This document shows positions 1,179 through 22,997 of a DNA stretch of 64,000 nucleotides, one piece after another; the first letter of the stretch is position 1; every line of letters starts with the position of its first letter. Under the pieces are notes generated by a model. That model searched no databases and was not told the DNA's origin. It worked only from the letters and a program-made list of their open reading frames with translations. The stretch is taken from NCBI GenBank assembly GCA_963817915.1, contig CAWFQL010000017.1, forward strand, positions 448,001 through 512,000. Reading direction: 5' to 3'. This DNA comes from an uncultured candidate division Zixibacteria bacterium. GTDB taxonomy: Bacteria > Zixibacteria > MSB-5A5 > UBA10806. Position numbers and translations under genes: made by a program.

Positions 1179-2293
1179 TAAATAAACTCGCGCGACCATC
1201 AAGAATAGAAATAGATATCAAAGCGCTCAAGCACAATATTTCTGTCATCAAATCCTGGATCGGACCCAAATCGACTCTAATGGGAGTTGTCAAGGCCGAT
1301 GCCTATGGACATGGTGCGGTCAAAATATCTCAAGCCGCCTCCGAAGAAGGCGTAGATTTCCTGGGCGTGGCTTTTCTCGAAGAAGCAATTGAATTACAGG
1401 AAGCCGGTATTAATACTCCGAAAGTTATCCTGTATCCGGAATCGATCGAAAGAAGCATTGAGGCGGTCAAGCGGAATATATTCATTACGATTTCCAATAC
1501 TGCCCAGTATACGACAATCAAGAACGGGCTCAATGGCAACAGCAACTCGATCAGATATTTTATCAAAGCCGAGACTGGAATGAATCGCTATGGCATGAAA
1601 TCCGACGAGATTGAGCAAAATATCGTCTTGCATATTAATTCACCGACCAAAGAATTGTATGGCATCACGACTAATTTAGCCGACCCCGGTATGAATAACA
1701 AAATTCTTGCTGAAAAACAGGTGCGCAATTTTGTGGAAACTGTTAAGCACATAAGCGAAAATTCATCCAACGGCATATTCTATTCAATCGATTCTTCCGG
1801 CTCTGTTTGGAAAAATAAATCATCCAACGGTTCGTTAGTTAGAATAGGACATCTGCTTTATGGTCTTGTGCCTAATGGATCCCGCTCAGATGAATTAAAA
1901 CCGGTAATGTCGGTCAAAAGTAGGATTGCTGAAATTCATCATGTTAAAGAAGGTGATGGTGTCGGCTACGGCTTTTCATTCATTGCCAGGAGAAATTCGA
2001 TCGTGGCGACTGTGCCGGCGGGCTACGCCGACGGCTATCCATGGAATCTTTCGAATAAAGGCCAGGTGATAGTGCGAGGCAAGAAGGCTCCGATAGCGGG
2101 CAAAATTTGCATGGACGCCTTTATGATCGATATCACCGATATTCCCGAATGCCAGCAGGGGGATGATGTGATTCTGCTGGGGTCAATGGGTGATCAGAGA
2201 ATCGACGCTCATGATATCGGTTCCTGGGCCGGGACTTTTTCATATGAAATACTCTCCGGATGGAGCAAGAGGATGCCGCGGATATATCTATGA
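1175..2293 (+). CDS. alr: alanine racemase family PLP enzyme (divergent)
   Basis: VVKADAYGHG, TGMNRYG, VGYG, GYADG, CMD, SYEIL motifs; ATGA overlap with lysA. Confidence 0.88.
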   Translation: MINKLARPSRIEIDIKALKHNISVIKSWIGPKSTLMGVVKADAYGHGAVKISQAASEEGVDFLGVAFLEEAIELQEAGINTPKVILYPESIERSIEAVKRNIFITISNTAQYTTIKNGLNGNSNSIRYFIKAETGMNRYGMKSDEIEQNIVLHINSPTKELYGITTNLADPGMNNKILAEKQVRNFVETVKHISENSSNGIFYSIDSSGSVWKNKSSNGSLVRIGHLLYGLVPNGSRSDELKPVMSVKSRIAEIHHVKEGDGVGYGFSFIARRNSIVATVPAGYADGYPWNLSNKGQVIVRGKKAPIAGKICMDAFMIDITDIPECQQGDDVILLGSMGDQRIDAHDIGSWAGTFSYEILSGWSKRMPRIYL

Positions 2294-3069
2294 TGGTGAG
2301 AATTAACATTAATGTTGCTGATATTCGCAAGGAACCTCAAGATAATTCTGAAAGGATTACTCAGGGATTATTCAACGAGATTGCAGAGGTTATGACCGAC
2401 AGCGATTCCTGGAGTAGAATCAAATTTCTCGATGGTTACGAAGGCTGGATCAGAAAAGCATTTATCAGTACTTATTGCAAACCATATGGCGAGGATTCAT
2501 TCGTTGTCGCTTTAAATCTCTCGCCCGGTTATATACAACCAAATATTCTATCCAGAGTTAATGGCTATTTCCCATATGGATGTTTAGTTGAAGGCATAGA
2601 TAATGGTCAATTTCTGGAGATTAAGACTGAACGATACGGCATATGTTTTTTGAACAAGACTGACCTTATAGAAAAGAGCTCTCTCGTAACGCCTCCCCAA
2701 AAAGACGAGGGGCGAATTGTATTGGAAGCAGAGAAATTTCTCGGCGTGCCATATCTTTGGGGCGGAAGATCATTTTTTGGTATCGATTGCTCCGGATTTT
2801 CGCAGGCCATCATGAAACGTTTTGGAATAAAATTGCCACGAGATTCAAAGGATCAAATTCATGAGGGAAGTGAAATCAACCGCAAGGATATTCGTACGGG
2901 AGATTTGCTCTTTTTCCCGAGGCATGTGGCGATTTCAACTTCTGGCGATATGCTTATTCACTCCAGCAGCTCCAATGGAGGAGTGGCATATAATAGCCTT
3001 GATCCCAAGAGCCCAATGTACTCTGAAAATCTCGATAAAACATTCATCACTGCCCGACGATTTTTTTAA
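2290..3069 (+). CDS. SH3 + NlpC/P60 (C40) peptidase, YkfC-like gamma-D-Glu-diamino acid endopeptidase
   Basis: GVPYLWGG..GIDCSGF, HVAI, IHSS catalytic triad motifs; N-terminal SH3b-like segment (DGYEGWI); ATGA overlap at 2290; no signal peptide. Confidence 0.85.
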   Translation: MMVRININVADIRKEPQDNSERITQGLFNEIAEVMTDSDSWSRIKFLDGYEGWIRKAFISTYCKPYGEDSFVVALNLSPGYIQPNILSRVNGYFPYGCLVEGIDNGQFLEIKTERYGICFLNKTDLIEKSSLVTPPQKDEGRIVLEAEKFLGVPYLWGGRSFFGIDCSGFSQAIMKRFGIKLPRDSKDQIHEGSEINRKDIRTGDLLFFPRHVAISTSGDMLIHSSSSNGGVAYNSLDPKSPMYSENLDKTFITARRFF

Positions 3070-4209
3070 TGAATAATATTTATAAATACCTCGTTTTGAT
3101 TTTAATAATGATATTGTCATTTATGGCATTGACTGCAATTAAAGGCTCGACCTTATCAGGAGCAAAAGTGAATAATATGATTTTCATAGAAAATGATGAT
3201 GATTGGCAAAAATGCAAATTTGTCAACTGTGCTCCCAATGTTCAGGACCATTCGATTGATTTTAACTGCGCGGGCGGTCCGTCATCGCTGACTACCGATA
3301 TTATTGATCCTGGATTTCGAATTTGATCAGATAATTCTTTCCTGGAATATTAACCGACTGGATTCATTATCTTCGATGTCATTCGAATTAGAGGTTTCTC
3401 CGGATCAGGAAGAATGGTACCGATTTGGGTATCTCGCCTGGGGTGCATCCGATTCCGCCAAAATGGCCGCGTTAATGATCTCGCCGAGAACAATAGATGG
3501 AATTGGTTATATGGATACCGATGTTCTTAAGCTGAAGAAACCGATGAGATTCGCACGTGTAATTGCAGCCGCGAGTTGCGATACATCATCATCGCATATA
3601 TCATTAAGAAGACTGGCTCTTGCATTTTCTTCCAAAAACTCAAGTTGGCGCGAATACCTCAAAACAACAAAAGGTGAAAAGAAACCAATCTACGGCATTT
3701 CCAAACTCGCTGTCCCATATTTTAGCCAGAGAAATCTGCCGGAAGAAATCTCCGGCTCCTGTTGTTCGCCAACATCGGTTAGTATGGTGCTCAATTATTA
3801 TAATCTGAATATCAATCCCGAAAAGCTTGCTTGGCAAATTTACGACCCTTTCAATAAAATGTTTGGCGATTGGCCATTTAATGTTCAGGCCGCTTACATG
3901 AATGGTCTCGGCAAAGCCTGGGTTGAAATACATAGCGGTTTCGACGAAATCTACGACGAAGTCGTTGGCGGAAGACCGGTGATTATAAGTATTGCCTATG
4001 GCTATAACGAATTACCCAAATCCCCGATCCATGAAGCAACTGTCGGCCATCTAATTGTGGTCGTCGGTTTTGAGGGTCCCGATACCGTAATCTGCAATGA
4101 TCCCGCAGGCCATGATGCATCGGATGGAATAATCAAATATCCAAGGCTTGAGCTCGAAAAAATCTGGATAAATCACGGCGGCGTTGCCTATCATCTATGG
4201 CCAGAATAA
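3069..4209 (+). CDS. secreted C39-like cysteine peptidase (one apparent +1 frameshift at about 3315-3317)
   Basis: Signal peptide in 3069..3326; removing one T joins DPGF to EFDQIILSWN; PYFSQ..CSPTS, GHLIVVVG, NDP motifs in 3304..4209. Confidence 0.75.
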
Positions 4210-5140
4210 TAAAACCGCGCAAATTAAATCCGGGCGATACCATCGCGCTGATAGCGCCATCATGGATCGTGCCCCCGGAACAGCTTAATAAGGGTATCGA
4301 ATTCCTTAGAAACCGCGGTTACAAGGTAAAGGAATATCCACAGATTCGTAGCCGATACGCTTACTTCTCCGGAAATGATAAAATGCGCGCCGATGCCTTG
4401 ATGCACGCATTCTCCGATAAAAAAGTCGATGCCATATTCTGTGTCGCGCGGCGGTTTCGGTGCGCAGAGAATACTTCAGTATATCGATTACAATGTGATC
4501 CGAAAAAATCCCAAACCATTTCTTGGTTACTCGGATATTACGGTCTTATTACTTTCGATATTCGCAAAAACCGGACTGGTCACATTCCATGGCCCCATGG
4601 TATCGACATCATTCGCGAGAAAGAAAAAACCATATACGATAGAATATTTTAAGAAAGCTTTGGAGGATTCATCTCCAATAGGCTTGGTGGCCAAGCCAAA
4701 AGAGTATAAAATAGAATGCCTCATTCCCGGGCGAGCTTCCGGCAGAATCGTCGGCGGGAATCTTTCCCTGATCACAAAGTTAATCGGCACCGGATTATTG
4801 CCATCATTTAAAAATAAGATAGTTTTTCTCGAAGATACCGACGAGGCTGCTTATCGTGTTGACGGCTACTTGTCTCATCTTTTTCAGGCCACTGATATTA
4901 GCCAAAGCACGAGGTTTCGTCATCGGTGAATTTACCAAAACCCCTCGACCAAAAGGCGGCGCTAAAGGCTGGACTCTAAAGCAGGTTATTCAGGATTATT
5001 TCTCGAAAGTCAAAAAGCCTACAATCAGCGGTTTCCCCTGCGGGCATGGCCACGAAAAAATCACTATACCAATCGGCGTAAATGTGGTAATTGATGCTGA
5101 CAAGAAAACTCTGGAATTTACTGAGGCGGGGGTGTGGTAA
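4197..5140 (+). CDS. ldcA: S66 family LD-carboxypeptidase (apparent +1 frameshifts at 4444 and about 4897)
   Basis: Three ORF pieces rebuild LNPGDTIALIAPS..FCARGGFG..GYSDIT..HGPM..GGNL..FLED..GHG (Ser-Glu-His triad). Confidence 0.85.
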
Positions 5141-6141
5141 TGAAAATTAATATAAAAGAACACGAAATCCATCTAAAGACAACCTTCAGGACAACCCATG
5201 GAGCCAGCGACTCCAAACGAGTTATTATCACCGATATCGATGGCGGCCTCGGCGAGGCATCGCCGGTTCATTATTACGGCGAAAATCTTGATACGGTAAA
5301 GATATTCCTCCATCAGGCATCCAATATTCTGAGCGATGATCCGTTCCAATTGGAATCGCTGGGCAAAAAGCTTGATAGCATTGCTGCATTCAATTATAGC
5401 GCCAAAGCGGCCATCGACATGTCAATGCATGATCTGGTCTGCAAAAAACTCGGCATTCCTCTATATAAATTTTTCGGCATTACTCCACGTACAGATCTTC
5501 CCACATCCTATACAATCTCAATCTCCGATCCTGACAGTATGAAGAAAGAAACCGAAAAATCGCCGGGCTATCAGGTCTACAAGGTAAAAGTCGGCGTACC
5601 AGGCGATATCGAAATGGTTGCCGCAGTCAGAGACGCTACCAAGGCGCGAATCAGGGTCGATGCCAACGAAGGATGGTCAGTCAAAGAGGCCATCTGGCGA
5701 ATCAAAGAGCTTGAGAAGCTTGATGTCGAATTCATCGAACAGCCTCTTAATAGAGATGATTTCGATGGTTTCAAAATCCTCCGCTCCAGGGTCGATATGC
5801 CGATTCTTGCTGATGAAGGAATTTTCCGCGCAAGCGATATCCCCAAGTATGTGGGCTTAGTCGACGGTATCAATATCAAGCTCTCCAAATCCGGCGGCCT
5901 GAGAGAGGCGTTCAAAATGATCGCAGTCGCCAGGGCTCATAAAATGAAAATAATGATCGGCTGTATGATCGAGACCTCAGTTGGTATCACTGCCGCCGCT
6001 CACCTTGCGATGCTATTAGACTATGCCGATCTCGATGGCAATGTCTTGATAAAAGACGATCCCTATCGCGGAGTCACTCTCAAAAATGGCTGTCTCATTT
6101 TACCTGACAGCCCTGGCATCGGTGTAGTTCCAGCAAAATGA
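5140..6141 (+). CDS. L-Ala-D/L-Glu dipeptide epimerase (enolase superfamily, YcjG/YkfB-like)
   Basis: KVKVG, DANEGW, EQP, DE, NIKLSKSGG, GCMIE, DLDG motifs. Confidence 0.88.
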   Translation: MKINIKEHEIHLKTTFRTTHGASDSKRVIITDIDGGLGEASPVHYYGENLDTVKIFLHQASNILSDDPFQLESLGKKLDSIAAFNYSAKAAIDMSMHDLVCKKLGIPLYKFFGITPRTDLPTSYTISISDPDSMKKETEKSPGYQVYKVKVGVPGDIEMVAAVRDATKARIRVDANEGWSVKEAIWRIKELEKLDVEFIEQPLNRDDFDGFKILRSRVDMPILADEGIFRASDIPKYVGLVDGINIKLSKSGGLREAFKMIAVARAHKMKIMIGCMIETSVGITAAAHLAMLLDYADLDGNVLIKDDPYRGVTLKNGCLILPDSPGIGVVPAK

Positions 6142-7883
6142 AGAAGCTTATACTCTGCATTTGGATCTTATTCATAGTCGATATAGCGTCGGCCGGCTTG
6201 GAAATCAATGTCATCTATCCCAGGCCCGGGCAGGAAATCGCAATTGTCGATTCGACATTTATATTCGGCAATATCACTTCAGGCGCATCTCTCTTTATTA
6301 ATGATGAACTCATTCCTGTCTATAAATCCGGTGGCTGGATTGCGTTCCAGAAAGTGCAACGCGGCGATTTTGTCTTTCATTTGGTGGCTTTCAAAGATGG
6401 CGATTCTACATCACTCGATTGGCCTGTCAGAATCGGCCCAATTATCGAATTCGATTCCACTGGTGGAGGTATCGTAAAAGGCTCTATTCGCCCGACATCG
6501 AAAGCAATTTACTCGGTCGGCGATCTTCTTGAATTTTCATTCGAAGCGCCATCCAATGGCTGCGCGTATTTCAAAATCAATAATAGGCAGCCTGTCGAGA
6601 TGATCGAATCCGATTCATCAATAAAGATCGAAAATCTATCTATGTATCGCGGCTATTATCAATTCACAGAATCCGACACTGGATCACATCGTATCTCATA
6701 CGAATTCTCTGCCAACCGTTGGGAAGCATTGACAGGCAATTTTATTACAATCGATACTCTGCTTAGCGTTTTGCCCGATTATCCGCCAGTTATCGGTGTC
6801 TTTAAAGGCACATCACAAATCGTCAGAACCGGTCCATACATGGGATATAAATTGCTCTATCAACCGCCAGGCATCAATGTTCTTGTCACCGGAATGGTTG
6901 ATGGCTTTTATAAAATTGCCCTGGCCGAAAATATCAACGCCTATGTCAATGTCGATAGCGTGAGCATCTTGAGTCCCGAAACATCTTTGCCTGCAGCTTC
7001 CTGTTCCGGTATTACGATCGACAAGGTATCCGATGGAGTCATAATTTCGGCCGAAATTGGAGCAAAGATGCCCTTTGAGGTTAATGAAAATCTCAATCCG
7101 CAAGTAATGGATATCGATATTTTCGGAGTTAAAGGCGATGTCGATAGAATTCGGTATAATTCCGATGATAAATTTATCAAAATGGCAAGATGGTCCCAGC
7201 CTCAGGATGATCTTTTCCGAATATCGATCGATTTCGGCGAAGGGAAAATCAAGGGATATACCGCTGGTTACCAGGATAAAAAATTTGTAATTCATATTAA
7301 AAAGAAATCAAATAAACATGGGATGTTCTCCAAATCATTAAAAGGCGTGCGAATCGTAGTCGACCCCGGGCATTCACACGACGCCGGAGCAGTCGGCCCG
7401 ACCGGGCTGAGAGAAGAAGACCCCAATCTCTGGATCGGGCAGGAATTGAGAACCATGCTCGAACGAAAAGGCGCGAAAGTGCTTATGACGCGCTATGGTC
7501 ACGAAGACGTCCCTTTGTATGACCGCCCCGCGATGGCGGAAAAATTCAATGCCGATATTCTTGTCTCTATACACAATAACGCTCTTCCCGATGGCAAAAA
7601 CCCATTCACCGATAATGGCACGTCTACATATTATTATCATCCGCATTCCAAGCCGCTCGCAGAAGCTATTCAGAAACGACTGCTCCATGCCACGGGTCTT
7701 CCCGATTACGGTCTCTATTATGGCAATTTGGCGCTTACCAGGCCGAGTTCATTTCCTGCTGTCCTTGTCGAATGCGCATTCATGATGATCCCCGAACAGG
7801 AAGCTATGCTGAAGAATGAGAAATTCAGAAAGAAATGTGCCAGGGCCATCATGGAAGGTATAGAAGATTATCTCGACGAATAA
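6138..7883 (+). CDS. exported N-acetylmuramoyl-L-alanine amidase (C-terminal Amidase_3 domain, long N-terminal beta-rich region)
   Basis: Signal peptide; IVVDPGH..E..SIHNNA..VLVECAF zinc-amidase motifs. Confidence 0.88.
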   Translation: MKKLILCIWILFIVDIASAGLEINVIYPRPGQEIAIVDSTFIFGNITSGASLFINDELIPVYKSGGWIAFQKVQRGDFVFHLVAFKDGDSTSLDWPVRIGPIIEFDSTGGGIVKGSIRPTSKAIYSVGDLLEFSFEAPSNGCAYFKINNRQPVEMIESDSSIKIENLSMYRGYYQFTESDTGSHRISYEFSANRWEALTGNFITIDTLLSVLPDYPPVIGVFKGTSQIVRTGPYMGYKLLYQPPGINVLVTGMVDGFYKIALAENINAYVNVDSVSILSPETSLPAASCSGITIDKVSDGVIISAEIGAKMPFEVNENLNPQVMDIDIFGVKGDVDRIRYNSDDKFIKMARWSQPQDDLFRISIDFGEGKIKGYTAGYQDKKFVIHIKKKSNKHGMFSKSLKGVRIVVDPGHSHDAGAVGPTGLREEDPNLWIGQELRTMLERKGAKVLMTRYGHEDVPLYDRPAMAEKFNADILVSIHNNALPDGKNPFTDNGTSTYYYHPHSKPLAEAIQKRLLHATGLPDYGLYYGNLALTRPSSFPAVLVECAFMMIPEQEAMLKNEKFRKKCARAIMEGIEDYLDE

Positions 7884-7895
7884 ATAATAATTGTA

Positions 7896-8705
7896 CTACT
7901 GCTTAAGCGCTCCGGCAGTGATTCCTTCAGTAATCTGTTTCTGGAAAATCAAAAATACTATAATAACCGGCATCGAGGCAATCACCGAACCGGCCATTGT
8001 CACTGGCCAATCGCTTGAACGGGGGTCCTGCATCAACGCCAATCCCACCGGCAATGTGTACATCTGATTGGAATTAGTCAGTATTTTCTGGAAAAGAAAT
8101 GAATTCCAGGTTGTCAAAAATATCTGTACTGCCAGCACGGCCATTGCGGGTTTGCACATTGGAAGCACTATCTTGAAAAAAATCGAAAGCTCGCCTGCCC
8201 CATCGACTCTGGCGGCGTCCTCTAAATCCTGAGGCAATCCGTCGATATACTGCTTCATTAAGAATATCCCCAATGGTGATATCAGCCACGGTACAATCAA
8301 CGCCCAATATGAATCAAACCATCCGAATTTCAGCATCATCTGAAAAATAGGCAATATAAGCACGTGGGCCGGTATCATTAGCATCGCGATAGCCGATACG
8401 AAAATCGGCCAGGCTATCTTTTGAAACCCTCTCGAAAGGCCATATCCGACCATTCCGCAAAAAAGCATATTCCCCAATGTTACCACTATCGCAACAAATG
8501 TTGAATTGAAAAAGTACCAGCCAAAATTATTGGATTTGAATACTGTTGTATAGCTTTCGAGACTGAATGACAGCTTGCTCAGATCGACAGCAAATGTGCC
8601 CGGCTTTTGAAACGATAGCACGATCATATATATCATCGGAAATACCATGATAAATAATATCAGCCCCAGGAATACCGAAACTGTCCATTTAATGATCTTA
8701 TTCAT
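7896..8705 (-). CDS. carbohydrate ABC transporter permease (MalG-like)
   Basis: EAA loop LEDAARVDGA; WNSFL; TLPVGL; GITAGALK. Confidence 0.9.
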   Translation of the reverse strand: MNKIIKWTVSVFLGLILFIMVFPMIYMIVLSFQKPGTFAVDLSKLSFSLESYTTVFKSNNFGWYFFNSTFVAIVVTLGNMLFCGMVGYGLSRGFQKIAWPIFVSAIAMLMIPAHVLILPIFQMMLKFGWFDSYWALIVPWLISPLGIFLMKQYIDGLPQDLEDAARVDGAGELSIFFKIVLPMCKPAMAVLAVQIFLTTWNSFLFQKILTNSNQMYTLPVGLALMQDPRSSDWPVTMAGSVIASMPVIIVFLIFQKQITEGITAGALKQ

Positions 8706-9571
8706 TTCGATGTGCTCCGCAAATTGATCAGCCTGAATTGAATCAATGAGAACAGCAGTATTATCATGAATAATATATATGCCGCCGCTGAGCCATAGCC
8801 GATATCGCCCCGTTGTATACCCTTATCGAATATATAATATACCGTGGTCAATGTAGAATTGAACGGTCTTCCTGAAGTCATCACGAAAATCTCCACAAAT
8901 ACCTGGAATGATCTTATCGTATTTAAAACTATTACGAAAACAAATGTCGATTTCAATAATGGTATTGTAATACTTTTGCTTCTTCTGAAAAAACCGGCAC
9001 CATCGACTTTTGCTGCTTCGAAAAGCTCGGTCGGTATGGATTTAATTCCCGCGAGAAATATAAGCACATAATATCCTATGGCGACCCAGATATCCATCGC
9101 CATTATCGCTAAAAGCGCAGTCTTCTCAGATTGCAGAAAGCCATTGGCAGGAGGAGTTAGTCCGGCCAGCTTATACAAAGAAAAGATATAACCGTCTCTG
9201 GAATAAAGATTATAAAACACTAATGCCACCACTACCATGGCCGTGATCGACGGTATAAAATATGTGGCTTGAAATATCCGATGTCCCGGTATTTTCTCGG
9301 CAATTATCAATGCTAATACCAGCGCCGCGATTGTGGTTATCGGTATCGTGCCAAAAATAAAGTAGAATGTATTCTTTAATGATGTGACAAATACAGGATC
9401 ATTAATTAGCCTTAAGTAATTGGCGAATCCTATGAATTTTCCGCTTCCTCTCAATAGCTGGAAGTCAGTGAGAGATAGATAGAATGAATAGACCATCGGA
9501 TAAAGCCAGAAGACTATCAGGAAAACTACCCAGGGCAAGGTGAAGAGTAGTACTTTATTTTGCTGTCTCAT
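8702..9571 (-). CDS. carbohydrate ABC transporter permease (MalF-like)
   Basis: FIGFANY; LFEAAKVDGA; ITIPLL. Confidence 0.9.
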   Translation of the reverse strand: MRQQNKVLLFTLPWVVFLIVFWLYPMVYSFYLSLTDFQLLRGSGKFIGFANYLRLINDPVFVTSLKNTFYFIFGTIPITTIAALVLALIIAEKIPGHRIFQATYFIPSITAMVVVALVFYNLYSRDGYIFSLYKLAGLTPPANGFLQSEKTALLAIMAMDIWVAIGYYVLIFLAGIKSIPTELFEAAKVDGAGFFRRSKSITIPLLKSTFVFVIVLNTIRSFQVFVEIFVMTSGRPFNSTLTTVYYIFDKGIQRGDIGYGSAAAYILFMIILLFSLIQFRLINLRSTSK

Positions 9572-10751
9572 TTTCCAAATTTCTCAATTTAGTATTTATA
9601 TCGACCGACGCCTTCGTCAATACTTCCCGCGCTGTCCCATGGCCGTACATGGCAGCTTCGATCGCATCCTCGATATCTTGTTCGATATCGATCCATATCG
9701 GCGTTGGCGGAGTTGCTCTCGAATTCCGAAGCTGCTGCGCCATTATTCGCTGCTCAGGATCGCTGATTGTGAGATCATTATATGGCGGAAATCCGAACCC
9801 GGCGGCATCGCATAACCTTTGCGAATTTTCTTTCGATGTCAGAAATTCGGCCAATTTTTTCGCCATCTCCATCTTTTTTGATTTTGCGTAAACCGCGATA
9901 TATTCGCCGCCGAAGAACGATGTTCCTGTTCCGCCGCCTGAACGAAAAATCGGAACCAATCGATATTTAAAATCAGGAGGTGTCTTTTTCAATCTCCTCA
10001 GAAGCCATCCACCGGAGATTACGAATCCGACCTTCCCTTCACGAAAATATTCTTCTATTCTCGATTGACTCTCAATTATTCCGCAGTGACATAGATCAAG
10101 GTAAAAATCAAGCGCGCCCACCGACTCTTTGGTATCGAGTGCGGATATTTTATTATCTTCGCTCAATATCTGGCCGCCATTGCACCATAGAAACGGTAAA
10201 AACTTTTTATACAACCTGTGTTTTTCGGCAGAATTGCTTCCAAAACCAAAACATTCATCTCCCAAAAGATCAATTTTACGGCAAGCCTTGAGCAATTCCG
10301 GCCAATCGTTAGGAGTCTTAATTTTCGCTTTCTGAAGCAGATCAATATTGAAATAGAATATTCTCGAATCAAGCATCCAGGGCAGCGCATAAAGCTTTTC
10401 ATTCCAAACTGCGGGGTAGAGATAGTTTTCCGGCAAATCCGATTCAAATTCGGTCAAAAGTCCGTTCGATGAAAATTGCGCGATCCAATCTGAACCCAAT
10501 TCCATCACATCTGGCGGAGCCTTGGCCGCGAATGATATTACAAGCTTGTCTTGTCCGTTGGCCCATGTTAAGTCGGTTATCTCTACTTTTGTGCCGGGGT
10601 TTGCCAATTCAAATTCCGCTATCAACTGCTCAATTACCGGTTTTGTGTTGATATCCGACCAGAATTGCCAGAACCTGATGGCATTCTCATCCTTTCTCGG
10701 AATCGAACAGCTTAATAGCAAAACCGCGAGGACAAAAAATACCTTTCGCAT
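9555..10751 (-). CDS. carbohydrate ABC transporter substrate-binding lipoprotein
   Basis: Lipobox LLSC; PPDVM; LYALPW; FREGKVG; adjacent to two CUT1-type permeases. Confidence 0.88.
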   Translation of the reverse strand: MRKVFFVLAVLLLSCSIPRKDENAIRFWQFWSDINTKPVIEQLIAEFELANPGTKVEITDLTWANGQDKLVISFAAKAPPDVMELGSDWIAQFSSNGLLTEFESDLPENYLYPAVWNEKLYALPWMLDSRIFYFNIDLLQKAKIKTPNDWPELLKACRKIDLLGDECFGFGSNSAEKHRLYKKFLPFLWCNGGQILSEDNKISALDTKESVGALDFYLDLCHCGIIESQSRIEEYFREGKVGFVISGGWLLRRLKKTPPDFKYRLVPIFRSGGGTGTSFFGGEYIAVYAKSKKMEMAKKLAEFLTSKENSQRLCDAAGFGFPPYNDLTISDPEQRIMAQQLRNSRATPPTPIWIDIEQDIEDAIEAAMYGHGTAREVLTKASVDINTKLRNLENETAK

Positions 10752-10758
10752 AGATTTG

Positions 10759-10788
10759 ATTTTATCTTCAATACATATCGCTTGTCAA
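10759..10788 (-). promoter_or_regulatory. sigma70-type promoter for the ABC operon (leaderless geometry)
   Basis: TTGACA-18 nt-TAAAAT-7 nt-ATG on the minus strand. Confidence 0.65.
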
Positions 10789-10878: not shown

Positions 10879-10907
10879 TTGACATAAATTTATACTACGC
10901 CTACAAT
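10879..10907 (+). promoter_or_regulatory. sigma70-type promoter for the four-gene membrane cassette (leaderless geometry)
   Basis: TTGACA-17 nt-TACAAT-8 nt-ATG; no SD. Confidence 0.7.
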
Positions 10908-10915
10908 CGATTTTA

Positions 10916-12046
10916 ATGAAGAAACTCTGGCTGATATCCTGTTTTTGTCTTCTTATATGCAATTCCATCATGGCATTCGATCTTCATATCTCCGATCAGC
11001 CCAACGATGATGGCTCCGCGCTGATAATAAAATGGGATAAACTTCCGCCCGCCGATTTGAAAGACAAAAATCCGCCAATCTACAATCTCGAACGAAGCCT
11101 TAGACCCGATTCAGGATTCTCATTTGCCTCATCAATATTAAGAGATGATTCTTCGCTGACAACAACTGACAAGGGCCTATCCAACAAGCTGAAATATTAT
11201 TATAGACTGTCTTATATTGATTCAACAATTTCCTGGCATTCGAACACAGCCGGGCCAGTCACTCCAAAGGAAAATTGGTATAATACCGACCGCTCTAACG
11301 TCCTTATAGGGATTATTATAACCGGGGCATTGGTGGCCTTTTTTATTGCGCTCGGCAAAAGAGGCAAGATGCTTTACCTGAGGCCAATCGCCGGACTCCT
11401 TGCGGTCGATGAGGCCATTGGCCGTGCTACTGAGATGGGCAAGCCGATTCTATATTCGTCCGGCCGCGGCGGTATGCAACGTCCCGCCTCTATTGCCAGC
11501 ATGAATATATTCGGCTCAGTCGCCGAGAAGGTCGCTACCTATGGGACACCTTTGATATTCCCCAACAACGACCCGGTAGTCATGGCAGTGGCGCAGGAAG
11601 TCGCCCGAGAGGGGTATACTCGAGCCGGTCATCCCGATGCCTACAATCCTGAAAATATCTATTTTGTCACTGATAGTCAGTTCGGTTATGCCGCCGCTGT
11701 AGATGGTATAATGATGCGTGAAAAACCTGCCACGAATCTTTTCTTCGGGACTTTCGAAGCCGAATCATTGATTCTCGCCGAAACCGGGAACTCCATTGGA
11801 GCTATCCAGATCGCCGGAACCGATTCATCTATTCAAATGGCGTTTTTTATGGTGGCGTGCGATTATGTTTTGATAGGGGAGGAGCTCTTTGCGGCGTCTG
11901 CATATCTTTCCGGCGATCCGCAGGTTGTTGGCTCTCTCAAAGGTTCCGATATATCGAAAATAATAATCATCGCATTGCTGATAATTGGTACGATTTTGGC
12001 ATTCATCGGGATTGCCTGGTTCGTGAATCTATTTATTACGGTTTAG
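10916..12046 (+). CDS. fibronectin type III + DUF6754-like membrane protein
   Basis: Signal peptide, Fn3-like segment (DQPNDDG..W..YYYRL), TM helix, conserved-looking domain RPIAGL..DEAIGRATEMG..IGEELFAASAYLS, C-terminal TM; family recognised from memory. Confidence 0.65.
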   Translation: MKKLWLISCFCLLICNSIMAFDLHISDQPNDDGSALIIKWDKLPPADLKDKNPPIYNLERSLRPDSGFSFASSILRDDSSLTTTDKGLSNKLKYYYRLSYIDSTISWHSNTAGPVTPKENWYNTDRSNVLIGIIITGALVAFFIALGKRGKMLYLRPIAGLLAVDEAIGRATEMGKPILYSSGRGGMQRPASIASMNIFGSVAEKVATYGTPLIFPNNDPVVMAVAQEVAREGYTRAGHPDAYNPENIYFVTDSQFGYAAAVDGIMMREKPATNLFFGTFEAESLILAETGNSIGAIQIAGTDSSIQMAFFMVACDYVLIGEELFAASAYLSGDPQVVGSLKGSDISKIIIIALLIIGTILAFIGIAWFVNLFITV

Positions 12047-12049
12047 AGA

Positions 12050-12667
12050 ATGAGAAGATCTGTTCCGATAATTGTTTGTCTTGGAGTCGGCCTCGCTATG
12101 CTGATCCAGTTTTTTATTCCCTCCAAGTTATCGCGCAATGTTTATAATGAAGTCACCGATTGGGCGCAGATAGTCTATGCATTTGCATTAATTGTAGGTG
12201 TTTTCGGCTTGATGAAATATCATTCGGGCAAGATTACCCGACGCGATAACGGTTGGATTTATAATCTTATCACGCTTCTGGCCTTGTTCATGATGGCCTT
12301 TCTCGGATTTGCCTTAGGCAGGAAAGACAATAGCCCATTTATGTGGATATTCAATTTTGTACAATCACCGATGCAGGCGTCAGTCTTTTCGCTTTTGGCA
12401 TTCTTTGTGGCATCGGCTGCGTATCGGGGATTCATGGCGCGCAATACCGAAGCTGTTTTATTGCTATTATCCGCCGTATTCATAATGTTTGGAATCGCTT
12501 CGGTTGGCAATTCGATACCTCCATTTTCAGATATCGCCAATTGGATTCTGATGAATCCCTCGATGACTGCTCGCCGCGGTATATATATAGGTATTGGATT
12601 AGGCACAATTGCCACCGCTCTCAGGGTTATCCTCGGTGTCGAACGGACCTATCTGGGGAAAGAATAA
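12050..12667 (+). CDS. uncharacterised polytopic membrane protein
   Basis: About 6 hydrophobic segments; SLLAFFVASAAYRGF; RGIYIGIGLG..LRVILGVER. Confidence 0.8.
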   Translation: MRRSVPIIVCLGVGLAMLIQFFIPSKLSRNVYNEVTDWAQIVYAFALIVGVFGLMKYHSGKITRRDNGWIYNLITLLALFMMAFLGFALGRKDNSPFMWIFNFVQSPMQASVFSLLAFFVASAAYRGFMARNTEAVLLLLSAVFIMFGIASVGNSIPPFSDIANWILMNPSMTARRGIYIGIGLGTIATALRVILGVERTYLGKE

Positions 12668-13492
12668 ATGAATTTCTGGGATAAAATTCGGCATTTGGAT
12701 CGACGAATCATTTTCATCCTTATGGCGTTGGGTGTTACTCTTCCGCTTCTTGTAAATATAGGCCTGCCGGTTCGCATCACCCCCGATGTTCAAAATATTT
12801 ATGATTATATTAATGGCTTAAAGCCGGGGGATGTTCTGATAATTTCATACGATCATGATACCGGAACACTTCCCGAGATGGTCCCTATGTCCACCGCTAT
12901 CTTGCGTCACGCCTTTTCCAAAAATTTGCGCCTAATAGGCATGGCTCTCAATGCCGAGGGTGCTGCAATCGGCAGACAGGCTTTCAGACGAGTCGGAGCC
13001 GAATTCAATAAGGAAGAGGGGATTGATTTCGCCTTTCTCGGTTACCGTCCGGAGATTACCGCCGCAGTTATGGGGATGGGAACTTCAATTCAACGAGTCT
13101 TCCCCAAGGATGATCGCGGTATTCCCGTGGATGAAATACCTCTAATGAAGACAGTCCACAACTACAATGATATCTCATTGGTTGTATCAGTCGCTGACGC
13201 CGATGCGCCCGTTTATTGGGTTAATTATGGCAATGCCCGTTTTCAGGTCAAGGTTGCCCCTGCTGTGACTGCGGTGATGGCCACTACTTTCTTTCCATTC
13301 ATTGATTCACATCAGGTGATAGGAATGATAGCCGGTCTCAAGGGCGCCGCTGAATATGAAAGATTGATTAAAAAGACGGAAGCCGCCAGCAGAGGCATGG
13401 ATGCTCAGTCGATTGCCCATCTTGTCGTAATAGGATTTATTCTTGTCGGCAATATAGCATTCTTCATGGGGCGAAAGCAGGGGAAGGGATAA
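12668..13492 (+). CDS. uncharacterised membrane-anchored protein (N- and C-terminal TM, central soluble domain)
   Basis: LDRRIIF N-terminal TM; GLKGAAEYE..GMDAQS before the C-terminal TM. Confidence 0.8.
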   Translation: MNFWDKIRHLDRRIIFILMALGVTLPLLVNIGLPVRITPDVQNIYDYINGLKPGDVLIISYDHDTGTLPEMVPMSTAILRHAFSKNLRLIGMALNAEGAAIGRQAFRRVGAEFNKEEGIDFAFLGYRPEITAAVMGMGTSIQRVFPKDDRGIPVDEIPLMKTVHNYNDISLVVSVADADAPVYWVNYGNARFQVKVAPAVTAVMATTFFPFIDSHQVIGMIAGLKGAAEYERLIKKTEAASRGMDAQSIAHLVVIGFILVGNIAFFMGRKQGKG

Positions 13493-13495
13493 GAA

Positions 13496-14194
13496 ATGGA
13501 TTTTCATTTCATATTCGATTACTTGATCGCCTCTGAAAGACTGGGAATCTGGATCGCGGCCTTAATGACGCTGGCGATCTATTCCTTCCTATATAAAGAC
13601 AACCCCATCTACCGATTTGCCGAAAGCATTTTAGTGGGAATATCGGTAGGATATCTTCTCGTCACGACATTCCAGACCACCATTATGCCCCAGGCTATGG
13701 ATCCGCTTGTCTTCAGTTTCAAAAATATATTCACGCCCGGAGAATCAGGTGGCATCGGGCTTTTCGTAATGGCCGCCCTGCCGATTATCCTCGGGCTTTT
13801 GATGTTCGCTCGATTTGTGCCCAAATTCACCTGGCTTTCCAGGGTTGCGCTTGCATTCTATATAGGCTTCGGCGCGGGCGCCTCGATTCCCGCCAATATG
13901 CAGTCCCAGATATTAAAGCAAATCGAGGCTACTATACGCCCATTCCTTGGCATTCACGGCTTTATGCCGATTCTAAATGCAATCTTAATCCTGGTTGGGC
14001 TGATTACGACACTATTCTATTTCTATTTTTCCAAAGCCCATACCGGCCTATTCGGCAAGGCCGCCAAATTGGGCACATTTTACCTGATGATATTCTTTGG
14101 TGCGACGTTCGGATATACCGTCATGGCCCGTATCTCGCTTCTCATTGGCAGAGTCACATTTCTGCTGAGAGATTGGTTGGGTCTGATTTCGTAG
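13496..14194 (+). CDS. uncharacterised polytopic membrane protein
   Basis: About 6 hydrophobic segments; SFLYKDNPIYRFAE; FGATFGYTVMARISLLIGR. Confidence 0.8.
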   Translation: MDFHFIFDYLIASERLGIWIAALMTLAIYSFLYKDNPIYRFAESILVGISVGYLLVTTFQTTIMPQAMDPLVFSFKNIFTPGESGGIGLFVMAALPIILGLLMFARFVPKFTWLSRVALAFYIGFGAGASIPANMQSQILKQIEATIRPFLGIHGFMPILNAILILVGLITTLFYFYFSKAHTGLFGKAAKLGTFYLMIFFGATFGYTVMARISLLIGRVTFLLRDWLGLIS

Positions 14195-14242: not shown

Positions 14243-16004
14243 TTGGTCGTGAAATTAGGATTTTTGACCATTATTCTTTTGGTCTTAACTATAGCATGTG
14301 AAAAGGTTGAAATGAACGCATGGGATCAAGTTAAGTTGCCCGGAAGCTATTCTGATTCTCACATATTATCGATCGACATCAAAGATAAGGAAATTTTATT
14401 GGGCACATATGGTCGAGGGGCATTATTCACCACGGATAATGGCCAAAACTGGGTATCTTATGACACAACCAAAGGTCTATCGTGGGATTTCATAATGGGT
14501 GGGGCATGGGACAAGAACTACTTCATTCTGGCTACCCTCGGAGATGGTGTCAATATTTCCGAAGATAAGGGCAAAACCTGGAAACGATACGGCTTCGATT
14601 TCTTCAAGCTCGAATATCTCTACACAGTCGGCGTAAAAATCCAAAATGGCAAAAGATATGTCCCCACTGCCGACGGCCTCGTCGTATTTGATAATATCCA
14701 AAACTGGCAAGGCTTGACCGAAAAAAATGGTTTGCCGTCTCAGTATATTTATAAAATGAAAATATCCGGCGATACTATCGCCATCGGTACGCTTCATGGC
14801 TTTTCTATCTCCACCGATTTAGGCGCGAATTGGAAAAATTCCTCTCCAAATGGCAAATACACAGCCGAAAAATCCTCCGCCTGCAAGGTGCGGGCGGTGG
14901 AATTTGCCGGCAATAATATCTATGCCGGATGCGATGACGGCCTCTATTATTCTCCGGATTTTGGCTCGACCTGGCAGCAAATCGGCCAGAATAATCTGAA
15001 AAGCAATTTTATTCATGATCTTGTCTGGGATCAGGATGGCAATCTTATGGATTGCGACATACAAAGAAATCACCAAATATAACCCAGCTAATTCGCAATG
15101 GCAGATATTCGATGAAAAAAGTGGCCTTCCCGGCGGAAGCATCAATTGTCTGGCATTGGGCAGAAAAGGTGTCGTTTACGCCGGTACCAATTACGGTCTT
15201 TATAAGCTCAACCACGGCCCTGCGATCGAACCGAAATCCGAGCCTGTCGATGCCGAATTCACCGAGACAGAGACTCCAATTCACCAATGGCTCCTGCGCC
15301 CTGTTGCCCCCGAAGAACAGAATTGCAAAGACCAAACCTACCTTTACGGTTCAACCATGGGCGGCAATTTCCGCCAGCATCAGGGAAATGAATACAATAA
15401 TCCAGAGGGAGTACCGCTACTCGCGGTTGATGATGGCGAGATAATCTATACCGAACCACCAATCGGCTTTACGATTCTTAAATGCAATACGAAAATGGAA
15501 GGCAAAGATATCTACGCCCACTACCATCATCAATTTGAAATCCTTAAAAAAGTCGGAGATAAAGTCAAAAGGGGAGATATAATCGGCTCAGTCGGCAAGA
15601 AGGGCAATGTAACCAATGAGCACCTTCATTTCGAAATCGGCATGTCTGCCAACGATTCCCAGAAGGAAGTCCCGACTCAAACCCGCAATTCCGAGCTTTG
15701 GGTCGCGCCGTTGGCGGGATGCGGCACGATTGTCGGCAATCTTGTTGATAAGGATGGCAATCCGGTTCAGGGCGCTCGCATTTACGGAGTCACCAAACCG
15801 GTGCCCTCAGAGACTCCTTTCTCGTTCGCTGAGACTTACAAAGATAAAGCCCATCCCGATAATTGGTACAATGAAAACTTCGCCATTGGCGATGTTCCCG
15901 AAGGCGATTACGTGTTGTATTGTCATAATGGCGACTTGAAATCGCGGATCAAGGTCCATGTCGATGCCGGCAAATTCACGAAAGTGAAAATGATCTTGAA
16001 ATGA
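14243..16004 (+). CDS. lipoprotein: beta-propeller repeats + M23 peptidase + carboxypeptidase-regulatory-like domain (apparent +1 frameshift at about 15046)
   Basis: Lipobox TIAC; S-x-D-x-G-x-x-W (BNR-like) and GLPS repeats; GNL|WIAT junction; HQGNEY..VGDKVKRGDIIG..HLHFEI; GNLVDKDGNPVQGA. Confidence 0.78.
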
Positions 16005-16065: not shown

Positions 16066-16200
16066 ATGTTTTGCCGAAAATGTAAAAAGAAGATGGAAGA
16101 AGAGAAGCGAAGCTTCCATAAAAGACGAAAATGGATTTGCCCGAAATGCGGTTCTGTAAGATTCCAACAGGCTAAGATCGATGTTGGCAAACGCAGGTAA
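16066..16200 (+). CDS. 44-aa basic zinc-ribbon protein (not in the ORF track)
   Basis: Translates MFCRKCKKKMEEEKRSFHKRRKWICPKCGSVRFQQAKIDVGKRR; two CxxC pairs; stop overlaps the DUF72 start. Confidence 0.7.
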   Translation: MFCRKCKKKMEEEKRSFHKRRKWICPKCGSVRFQQAKIDVGKRR

Positions 16201-16975
16201 AATCATAGTGGGAACATCCGGTTATTCATTCGATGATTGGGCTGGCGTCTTTTATCCGCCAGATCTTCCAAAGGGGAAACGTCTTGATTTCTATAAAGAG
16301 CATTTCAATGTCACCGAAATCAATTCGACCTATTATCGCATTCCACATCCGGCGGTATTCTATAATATCGCGAAAAAAGTTGGTGATAATTTCGAATTCA
16401 TGATCAAGACTCATCGCAGCTTCACTCATGACCGAAGGGATCTCAAAAAGCAATGCCAGCTTTTTAATGATTCCATCAGACCGATGACAGATTCGGGCAA
16501 ATTAAAGGGACTCATGGCTCAATTCCCATTCAGCATAAAATTTACAAAGGCCAATCTTGATTACATTATCAATGGCAAGGATTTTTTCCCCGGCCATAAT
16601 CTTTTCGTCGAATTTCGCCACGATAGCTGGGATATCCCCGAAGTCTATGATTCATTGGCGAAAAATGACATCGGGGTTTGTTCGGTCGATGAGCCACAGC
16701 TGCCCGGCCTTTTTCCTCCGAAACCGATTGCGACCACAAATATCGGCTATGTCCGGCTTCATGGACGTAATTCTGCCAACTGGTGGGGCGGCGAAGGCGA
16801 TCGATATGACTACATGTATTCGGAAAATGAATTAAAAGAGTGGAAAGATAAAATTGATCTCTTGAAAAAAAATACGGATAAGTTATATTTGTTCTTTAAC
16901 AACTGCCATTTGGGGCAGGCTGTTAGAAATGCTAAAATGTTTTTGGACATGATTCAAACGGAAATGACGCAATGA
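16181..16975 (+). CDS. DUF72 family protein (YecE/YunF-like)
   Basis: VGTSGYS..W..FYP, EINSTYY, QFP, EFRH, YVRLHGR, YDYMYS, FNN. Confidence 0.9.
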   Translation: MLANAGKIIVGTSGYSFDDWAGVFYPPDLPKGKRLDFYKEHFNVTEINSTYYRIPHPAVFYNIAKKVGDNFEFMIKTHRSFTHDRRDLKKQCQLFNDSIRPMTDSGKLKGLMAQFPFSIKFTKANLDYIINGKDFFPGHNLFVEFRHDSWDIPEVYDSLAKNDIGVCSVDEPQLPGLFPPKPIATTNIGYVRLHGRNSANWWGGEGDRYDYMYSENELKEWKDKIDLLKKNTDKLYLFFNNCHLGQAVRNAKMFLDMIQTEMTQ

Positions 16976-17862
16976 AAAAATTCTGGAAAAAAATACTGTT
17001 CTATGTGTTGGCCATCTGGACTGTCACCGCGGTTTATACTGCGATAGCCAATAATCGCCGCTCTGAAAGCATTCGCTTTCAAGAGAAACCGGCGACCTTC
17101 CAACTGCTTCTTGATAGCGTCAATCCATCCAAACTTCCCAAAATAAGCGCCAAATCGGCAATATTAGTTGATCTCGATAGCGGCAATGTTCTTATGAAAA
17201 AAGATGAACTGGAAACAAGACCGATAGCCAGCCTTACCAAGCTCGCGACTGCGCTTGTTTTCCTTAATACCGCTCCCGATTTTCTTAAAGTCGAAACTGT
17301 AACTCAGGAAGATCGCGAAGGCGCTGGAAGGTCTCGTTTGTATAAAGGCGAAAAAGTTACTGTTTATGATCTTTTCCACTTGATGCTGATATGCTCTGAC
17401 AATGTCGCCGCGCGTGTCGTCGCCAGATCGACCGGCATGACCACCGAGCAATTCGTCGCCAAAATGAATGAGCTTGCGTCAAGCCTGAATCTTGCCAATA
17501 CCCATTTTGCCGATCCCACCGGCCTCGATCCCAATAATGTTTCCACAGCCGCAGAACTTGCTATCATCTTTAAATCCGCTCTCGAACAAAATTTCATTGC
17601 TGAGGCTATCTCGAAAAAGAATTTCTCATATAGGGCTGTCAACGGCGAACGGCTCTTCACAATATATAATACCAATCGCCTGCTCTTCGGACGAAATGAA
17701 ATCATCGGCGGCAAAACCGGATACATCAAAGAATCCGGCTACTGCCTGGCTCTCGGTATTGAGGATGTCGATGGCAGAAAATTAGCCGCAGTCCTCCTCG
17801 GTGCCCCTACCAGCGGATATCGTTTCCGCGACGCCGCCAAACTCATGGCCTCAGTAGAGTAA
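16972..17862 (+). CDS. S11 family D-Ala-D-Ala peptidase (PBP5/PBP7-like)
   Basis: PIASLTK (SxxK), SDN, GGKTG; FADPTGL; N-terminal anchor. Confidence 0.88.
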   Translation: MKKFWKKILFYVLAIWTVTAVYTAIANNRRSESIRFQEKPATFQLLLDSVNPSKLPKISAKSAILVDLDSGNVLMKKDELETRPIASLTKLATALVFLNTAPDFLKVETVTQEDREGAGRSRLYKGEKVTVYDLFHLMLICSDNVAARVVARSTGMTTEQFVAKMNELASSLNLANTHFADPTGLDPNNVSTAAELAIIFKSALEQNFIAEAISKKNFSYRAVNGERLFTIYNTNRLLFGRNEIIGGKTGYIKESGYCLALGIEDVDGRKLAAVLLGAPTSGYRFRDAAKLMASVE

Positions 17863-21784: not shown

Positions 21785-22997
21785 ATGTCGAAGGAGAAGT
21801 TTGATAGGACGAAGCCGCACGTTAATGTAGGCACGATAGGTCATGTGGATCATGGCAAGACGACATTGACGGCGGCGATCACGATGGTGCTATCGAGGAA
21901 GTATTCGAAGGTAGCGATCCGGGATTTTGACAGTATTGACAACGCTCCGGAGGAGAAGGAACGTGGTATAACGATAGCGACGGCGCATGTCGAGTATGAG
22001 ACAGCCAAGCGTCACTACGCCCACGTTGATTGTCCGGGTCACGCGGATTACATCAAGAACATGATCACGGGAGCGGCCCAGATGGATGGAGCTATCCTGG
22101 TGGTCAGCGCTTCGGATGGTCCGATGCCTCAGACGCGCGAGCATATCTTGCTGGCCCGTCAGGTTGGAGTGCCGTTCATCATCGTGTATATGAATAAGGT
22201 AGACATGGTAGACGATCCCGAGTTATTGGATTTGGTGGAGTTGGAAGTTCGGGACCTGCTCAATAAGTATCAGTTCCCCGGCGACGAGATACCGGTGATA
22301 AGAGGCTCGGCTTTGCAGGCGATGACCAAGGGTTCTGATAAGTCGGTATCGATCGACGCGCCGGAGTTTAAGAGCATATTGGAATTGATGGATGCGGTGG
22401 ATAGCTACATACCGGAACCTGTCAGGGATACCGACAAGCCGTTTTTGATGCCGGTCGAGGATGTGTTCTCGATTACCGGCCGTGGCACGGTAGGCACCGG
22501 CAGGGTAGACCGCGGCAAGATCAGACAGGGCGACGAAGTCGAGATAGTGGGCATCAAGGATACCCGCAAGTCGGTAGTCACCGGTGTTGAGATGTTTAGA
22601 AAGCTATTGGATTTTGCTCAGGCAGGCGACAACGTTGGTCTTCTTATTGAGGGGTGTCGATAAGGAAGAGTTGGAACGCGGCATGGTAGTAGCCAAGCCG
22701 GGTTCGATCACGCCGCACAAGAAGTTTAAGGGTCAGGTCTACGTCTTGAAGAAAGAGGAGGGTGGTCGTCACACGCCGTTCTTCAATGGTTATCGTCCGC
22801 AGTTTTATTTTAGGACGACGGACGTTACGGGCAACGTGAATTTGCCGGCGGGGACGGAGATGGTAATGCCGGGTGACAACGTGGTTATGGATTGTGAGTT
22901 ATTGACTCCGATAGCGATGGAGAAGGAGCTTCGATTCGCCATCCGAGAAGGCGGCCACACAGTCGGCGCCGGAGTCGTCACCGAAATAATTGAATGA
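21785..22997 (+). CDS. tuf: elongation factor Tu, copy 1 (apparent +1 frameshift at about 22639-22646)
   Basis: [21 protein letters not shown]-terminus continues in the 22584..22997 frame; one extra base relative to copy 2. Confidence 0.95.

Follow-up and report, generated by a model that had tools for sequence, protein, structure and literature searches.

The window analysed here, a stretch of 64,000 nucleotides (nt) from the genome of an uncultured Zixibacteria bacterium (contig CAWFQL010000017.1 of GCA_963817915.1; this genome is called G000 below), carries a cassette of four membrane-associated genes, A to D, on its forward strand. Coordinates are positions within this window unless a contig is named. 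A first-pass annotation, made from the letters alone, had singled out the cassette as four co-oriented genes spaced 3, 0 and 3 nt apart behind one strong promoter. The open reading frame (ORF) coordinates bear out the spacing, with protein lengths in amino acids (aa):

10879-10907, + strand: sigma-70-type promoter, TTGACA-17-TACAAT, matching the consensus at 11 of 12 positions and ending 8 nt short of the ATG of A
10916-12046, + strand: A, ORF of 376 aa
12050-12667, + strand: B, ORF of 205 aa
12668-13492, + strand: C, ORF of 274 aa
13496-14194, + strand: D, ORF of 232 aa

Gene order, folds and topology of the cassette

Taken alone, a single promoter match is weak (17 sites came up in the scan, where shuffled sequence gave 12.2 +/- 3.6). 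The promoter proposed ahead of A does recur: an 11-of-12 site lies upstream of A in 13 of the 23 related loci examined, and in 12 of these 13 it sits 6-10 nt before the ATG, so the A-D transcript is probably leaderless. A second 11-of-12 promoter stands back to back with it on the other strand (10759-10788), each about 8 nt from a start codon, and both divergent operons (A-D and a sugar-type ATP-binding cassette (ABC) importer described below) look leaderless. The four genes also share one reading frame (start offsets of 1134, 1752 and 2580, all multiples of 3), which is probably chance since the gaps vary among other copies.

The cassette behaves as one conserved unit. A scan of species genomes gave 616 confirmed stretches, and the best 80 correspond to 76 distinct loci, that is, a sample of the closest matches with distant variants outside it. 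Taxa named in the titles of these loci include WOR-3, Poribacteria, Fermentibacteria, Latescibacterota, Eisenbacteria and Armatimonadota. In 91 of the 102 A genes at these loci, B, C and D follow in this order; the other 11 lie at contig ends, and there are no other exceptions. This is the co-conservation that the first-pass annotation had proposed to look for, and G000 itself holds four A-B-C-D cassettes. More broadly, DUF6754, the Pfam family of A, is found in all 41 genomes of the class (3-6 matches apiece), and the core of A is matched by 2212 clusters at 50% identity. Natural fusions add little: none of 7998 scored candidates involves B, and the two single-record C-D fusions (P0273, P0274), which may be frameshift or deletion artefacts, were given little weight. 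A complex prediction with A (residues 118-376), B, C and D scored 0.82 with B as the partner, 0.00 in partner-swap controls and 0.71 in a control with C replaced; it gave no answer and is counted neither way.

At the level of families, A is a clear member of DUF6754 (PF20539), as the first-pass annotation had suggested: residues 118-372 match model positions 2-256 of 257 with 360 bits against a cut-off of 27. B, C and D give nothing above cut-off in Pfam or NCBIfam, and their profiles have no sequence relatives in the PDB at E<=5. The claim that the cassette lacks transporter signatures held up in the same two libraries, where none of A-D matches ABC, major facilitator (MFS), TRAP or energy-coupling factor (ECF) families. 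Specifically, they contain no BPD_transp_1 permease or SBP_bac_5 binding protein (neighbouring ABC genes were matched in the same scan), no EcfA/A' ATPase, EcfT or S-component family (Pfam, NCBIfam), and no match to the AmpG, POT, TRAP, OPT or MFS secondary-carrier profiles.

The AlphaFold2 model of A has a pLDDT (predicted local distance difference test) of 93.8. It lays out an N-terminal helix, an Fn3 domain (21-120), a helix (124-148), a six-stranded alpha/beta domain (159-333) and a final helix (335-363). The hydrophobic N-terminal helix is likely a signal peptide. The Fn3 domain finds good matches (best Z 10.3, root-mean-square deviation 2.9 over 95 residues), and the core domain scores at Z about 10, tied among unrelated Rossmann folds with no stand-out match. 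C has one transmembrane (TM) helix at each end flanking a soluble domain, and B and D are polytopic. The earlier description of two polytopic proteins and two with a soluble domain between TM helices, one of them with an exported Fn3 module, is thus confirmed.

The orientation of these parts was predicted from charge bias, using 124-214 sequences per family. Residues 148-157 of A carry 4.2 K/R and C is K/R-rich at both ends, and on this basis the Rossmann-like domain of A is predicted to be cytoplasmic and that of C extracytoplasmic. B is predicted to have about six TM helices with both termini inside; D, also with about six, would have its N-terminus outside, i.e. opposite to B. The loop after TM3 carries an inserted C-like domain in one B homologue and FG-GAP-like repeats (by eye) in another, which fits this loop, and hence the domain of C, lying outside. 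Large insertions, confined to one loop each, occur in B and D homologues (L028:1255-2598; L074:11109-12887; P0271, P0272; P0275-P0281), and one B homologue contains a full C-like domain.

C was modelled as part of the database C-D fusion P0273, where its domain has a pLDDT mostly above 90 and D lies at about 40-90. The C domain has the same helix and strand order as the A domain apart from one insertion, and the two align to matching stretches of nine structural templates found for both (e.g. 1kjn with Z 9.4 for A and 9.5 for C; 4j16 chain C, 279-445 and 280-450), with matches at a generic Rossmann level. Foldseek matched nothing to the C-D model at E<=0.001, and its best Z was 9.5. The first-pass annotation had looked to structure searches for a pore or transporter fold; neither the A nor the C-D model matched one, in searches that barely covered D. 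Sequence paralogy of A with C and of B with D was tried and is not claimed: profile comparison gave probabilities of only 1.9% and 3.8%, and deeper alignments gave 2-6% and 0.2-3%, near reversed controls.

A single-copy ATPase and the distribution of Opp/Dpp importers

The cassette had been called ATPase-less. This is right for the A-D operon and wrong at the level of the system, since a single-copy actin-fold ATPase, here called M, and a second protein, N, track the cassette across genomes. M (628 aa) is GlmL-like (PF13941, 429 bits) and lies about 395 kb from the cassette in G000; N (376 aa) is likewise single-copy there, against four cassettes. Of the 76 loci, 16 have M and 17 have N within 10 kb of the cassette, which makes these two the top recurrent neighbours; two small proteins near cassettes, P and Q, recur in nine and four loci. 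In G000, the gene for M occupies C17:63958-65844 and that for N occupies C18:86226-87356, and the small P and Q genes are at about 12340-13250 of C15. N, P and Q match no family above cut-off in the libraries scanned, and N has only weak matches to RraA-like and sandwich-barrel domains (E 0.02-0.06).

The co-distribution is close in two other phyla. Among the 221 genomes of the phylum of genome G041, DUF6754 is over cut-off in 40 and M (E<1e-100) is present in exactly the same 40; in four further genomes the GlmL-type matches are no better than weak, near 1e-39. In the phylum of G044 (151 genomes), DUF6754 and N are both present in 128 genomes and both absent from 18, with DUF6754 only in three and N only in two, so that the two agree in 146 of 151. 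From these patterns we read the cassette as the part of a larger system that is membrane-bound and varies, served by one common ATPase.

M matches PF13941, as do GlmL/MutL and the Or-4 B12-mutase accessory proteins, and GlmL/MutL has been described as a reactivating chaperone of glutamate mutase (PMC4682846). M differs from these relatives in falling below the NCBIfam cut-offs (229 of 475 for NF040745, 222 of 600 for NF040744, 167 of 204 for TIGR01319), in having about 140 more residues at its C-terminus than GlmL/MutL and in its link to membrane cassettes. It keeps actin-fold-type phosphate motifs, and its profile has no sequence match in the PDB. No B12 mutase gene was recognised by eye in the 28 kb read around M. 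Several small genomes from the phylum of G041 have an ABC permease no more than about 4 kb away from M (G073:C1, G055:C2, G066:C1, G107:C3, G075:C192).

The subunits differ in how much they vary among copies. Mean pairwise identity is 61% for the soluble domain of A and 39% for that of C, a difference that would be expected if A met a common partner and C differing ligands. A, the most conserved subunit, is likely the docking site for the common ATPase module, and C, which varies among copies, is a candidate substrate-binding subunit. The nearest atlas clusters to a C homologue are unnamed.

A further clue to cargo comes from the peptide importers that these genomes lack. In G000, which is 93.9% complete, the searches detected neither an Opp/Dpp permease nor AmpG, POT or AnmK. 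It has five ABC importer permease matches, none of Opp type (by their neighbours, one is of polar-amino-acid type, two are of phosphate type and two lie in the window), together with one OPT-family gene, one MalK-type ATPase and MurQ. Its one SBP_bac_5 protein (G000:C15:406-5316) precedes kinase-like and response-regulator-like genes, not permeases, and is apparently a sensor rather than part of an importer. Across the class, OppC_N is matched in three of 41 genomes (over cut-off in two), and Opp/Dpp was not found in the other 38.

In the phylum of G041, OppC_N is missing from 17 of 221 genomes: 15 of the 40 with DUF6754 and two of the 181 without. A control on 33 genomes showed that the 15 OppC_N-lacking positives retain 4-12 other ABC permeases, and that three genomes, G089, G095 and G111, carry permeases in adjacent, high-scoring pairs that are probably Opp-type. 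After this control, 13 of 40 positives and one of 181 negatives lack Opp (one of 177 when the unpublished genomes G258, G254, G154 and G263, all Opp-bearing negatives, are left out, which changes nothing). In the phylum of G044, using two models, Opp was not found in 64 of 131 DUF6754-positive genomes against none of 20 negatives. The gap holds in each genome-size bin, the smallest of which has only one negative. A third phylum allowed no contrast, as six of its seven genomes are DUF6754-positive. Altogether, the distribution of Opp/Dpp tends to be complementary to that of DUF6754.

Cell-wall genes around this copy

The copy in the window sits among genes for peptidoglycan turnover:

2260-6141, + strand: YkfC-like SH3-NlpC/P60 peptidase, C39 peptidase (split), LD-carboxypeptidase (split) and Ala-Glu epimerase-family enzyme; stem-peptide breakdown
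6138-7883, + strand: N-acetylmuramoyl-L-alanine amidase (PF01520, 150 bits), with a hydrophobic N-terminus
7896-10751, - strand: sugar-type ABC importer (binding protein and two permeases), divergent from A and starting 165 bases upstream of it, with its own 11-of-12 promoter at 10759-10788
14243-16004, + strand: exported BNR-repeat/M23 peptidase, in two frames here and one ORF of 576-623 aa in relatives
16181-17862, + strand: DUF72 protein and D-Ala-D-Ala carboxypeptidase (DacA), which persist downstream of this paralogue more than any other genes

The YkfC-like protein finds its best PDB matches in dipeptidyl-peptidase VI/YkfC, and no signal peptide is evident by eye on it or on the LD-carboxypeptidase (LdcA-like) and epimerase proteins. 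The amidase is likely exported and would free stem peptides outside the cytoplasm. Downstream, only 48 nt with no terminator-like site separate D from the BNR-M23 gene, which is probably co-transcribed with A-D. The first-pass annotation had noted that no AmpG, Opp or Mpp gene lies in the locus; this stands, and what it overlooked is the adjacent sugar-type ABC importer. The binding protein of this importer is the sole strong SBP_bac_1 match in G000, and the MalK-type ATPase is encoded elsewhere. Uptake of whole muropeptides, one of the roles first suggested for the cassette, or of sugars is better explained by this neighbour.

How far the association extends was surveyed in 40 regions around the best C matches (38 genomes, with a second match in two), 20 control regions around other paralogues and the 76 loci, using the cell-wall proteins of the window and one DgcN-like protein as queries. 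A tree was built from 164 C proteins after removal of frameshifted, partial and identical rows and of one duplicate locus, and in it the copy in the window falls in one clade of 42 members (support 0.97). A peptidoglycan-turnover homologue lies nearby in 34 of these 42 against six of the 122 outside, the six being five Poribacteria (epimerase several kb off and on the other strand) and one alanine racemase. None of the 20 control regions has a cell-wall neighbour. Within the clade, DacA, M23, DgcN-like (DUF1611), amidase and epimerase genes alternate as neighbours, and in four families the epimerase, amidase and sugar ABC genes stay together as a block next to the cassette, even where C shares 38-43% identity. 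The proposed link to peptidoglycan genes thus applies to the clade of this paralogue and not to the family as a whole. It is a single inherited event, and so we treat it as suggestive rather than statistical.

There is a precedent for this arrangement in Bacillus subtilis, where free stem peptides are proposed to be imported and then processed by YkfABC, and ykfA-D adjoin the dppB-E transporter operon (PMC2954226). In the window, the cassette and the sugar ABC importer take the place of dppB-E beside the ykf-like enzymes. Stem-peptide uptake, the role first proposed, is indirectly favoured for this paralogue by its conserved peptidoglycan neighbours, by stem-peptide enzymes with no evident signal peptide and by the lack of Opp/Dpp, AmpG and POT; as a family-wide role it is not.

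Other features of the region stand apart from this argument. Several genes are split: the C39 peptidase (3069-4209), the LD-carboxypeptidase (4197-5140), BNR-M23 (14243-16004), tuf (21785-22997) and an A paralogue (G000:C12, about 178280). Assembly errors are the likely cause, since 16 related loci have BNR-M23 as a single ORF. Immediately before the window (G000:C17:437276-447897), a TonB-receptor-like gene and a DacB/PBP4-like peptidase (by eye) lie upstream of lysA and extend the cell-wall cluster. Near-identical murQ-containing segments occur on three contigs (G000:C20, C21 and the end of C16), as duplicated strain material or a repeated island. Finally, two exported proteins of about 620-640 aa form a conserved pair downstream of another paralogue (L126, L129, L132, L135, L137, L139, L140; G000:C12:184753-188464).

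Interpretation and rival explanations

Our favoured reading, held tentatively and at a little under an even chance, is that A-D are the interchangeable membrane module of an undescribed peptide importer driven by a separate, common actin-fold ATPase, and that this copy takes up stem peptides. In such a system, the conserved Rossmann-like domain of A would face the cytoplasm and the variable, like-folded domain of C would face outward, with B and D crossing the membrane in opposite orientations to give an antiparallel A-B/C-D arrangement. The exported amidase would free a stem peptide, C (perhaps with the ectodomain of A) would bind it, and B and D would form the path across the membrane. M and N would together bind to A and power the cycle. 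Inside the cell, the peptide would then be broken down by the YkfC-like, LdcA-like and epimerase enzymes, and the amino-sugar half would fall to the sugar ABC importer next door.

Known systems offer partial likenesses. Group II ECF transporters use one energising module in common for several scattered membrane modules, and the likeness here is in this logic only: the ATPase is actin-fold and GlmL-like rather than an ABC pair, and where ECF systems have an S-component and EcfT, the cassette has four subunits, with soluble domains predicted on both faces. Opp/Dpp with ykfABC in B. subtilis (PMC2954226) shares the stem-peptide-enzyme neighbourhood and, putatively, the same job. The cassette differs in having no SBP_bac_5, BPD_transp_1 or P-loop ATPase, and its linked ATPase is of the PF13941/GlmL type. 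By the sequence families and the type of ATPase, the system matches neither ECF nor Opp/Dpp. As for Pfam, DUF6754 itself has no described function, and the partners B, C, D, N, P and Q fall outside any family above cut-off. Our literature search, which covered sources other than subscription journals and supplements, found no paper naming DUF6754, PF20539, PF13941 or TIGR01319, nor any on the system.

Several observations weigh against a peptide importer. No known transporter fold was matched in searches with the models of A and C-D, which barely covered the low-confidence D, and the similarity of A to C and of B to D is undetectable by profile comparison. The nearest named relative of M, GlmL/MutL, is described as a reactivating chaperone and not a transporter motor (PMC4682846). 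Opp is kept in many DUF6754-positive genomes (67 of 131; 25-27 of 40), so the two are not mutually exclusive, and kin genomes are not independent, so that the Fisher values overstate the significance. The negatives in the phylum of G044 may be few clades. The cell-wall linkage concerns one clade and a region ahead of the tuf operon, in which gene order may be retained in any case; eight of its 42 members and 116 of the 122 other copies have no such neighbour. Lastly, the OPT-family transporter and the adjacent sugar ABC importer could each serve the locus.

These points lend themselves to other accounts. The same common-ATPase design might import other solutes (amino acids, amino sugars or cofactors), the neighbourhood being inherited synteny and stem peptides entering through OPT, the sugar ABC importer or another permease. 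The unrelated neighbours of most copies, the single clade near tuf, and the OPT-family gene and complete sugar ABC set in G000 would all fit; what makes this account unlikely to us is that the importer lost along with the presence of DUF6754 is the peptide type, other ABC permeases being retained, and that five kinds of cell-wall gene alternate as neighbours within the clade. Alternatively, variable ectodomains may detect or grip a surface ligand, and a chaperone-like ATPase may remodel either the complex or a partner without any bulk flux of solute. Such a sensing or envelope-remodelling machine would suit the wide variation of the A ectodomains (total length 282-1276 aa among 150 matches; Fn3 and PQQ-type propellers among 55 scanned), the large insertions tolerated by B and D, and the chaperone role described for GlmL/MutL (PMC4682846). 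Yet no regulator or kinase is a consistent same-strand neighbour, many A frames in the phylum of G044 are only about 255-300 aa and leave no room for an ectodomain, and the Opp pattern is not predicted; we consider it, too, rather improbable.

A still more doubtful account is a membrane-bound enzyme or a complex for group transfer, whose opposed Rossmann-like domains relay across the membrane a chemical group that M and N have activated. The A domain has many invariant polar residues and resembles nucleotide-binding domains (Z 9-10), and N has its weak similarity to RraA-like and sandwich-barrel domains (E 0.02-0.06); however, the fold matches are generic and tied among unrelated Rossmann folds, no pathway genes are co-clustered, and several divergent copies per single ATPase fit substrate modules better.

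Returning to the importer, we know of no importer powered by an actin-fold rather than a P-loop ATPase. In its widest form, on which we are more hesitant still, the proposal is that ATP-powered importers include, besides ABC and ECF, a third class built of antiparallel four-subunit modules with a common actin-fold ATPase. This class would stand in for Opp/Dpp across many mostly uncultured phyla, with this paralogue recycling stem peptides. Should the transport reading fail, there would still be a conserved machine of six to eight genes without a described function, present in all 41 genomes of the class and in 131 of 151 from another phylum. The locus is a good entry point, as it names a substrate (Ala-gamma-D-Glu-mDAP peptides). 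If the reading is true, the system would be a primary active transporter powered by an actin-fold ATPase, and it would explain peptide uptake in lineages that mostly do without Opp/Dpp.

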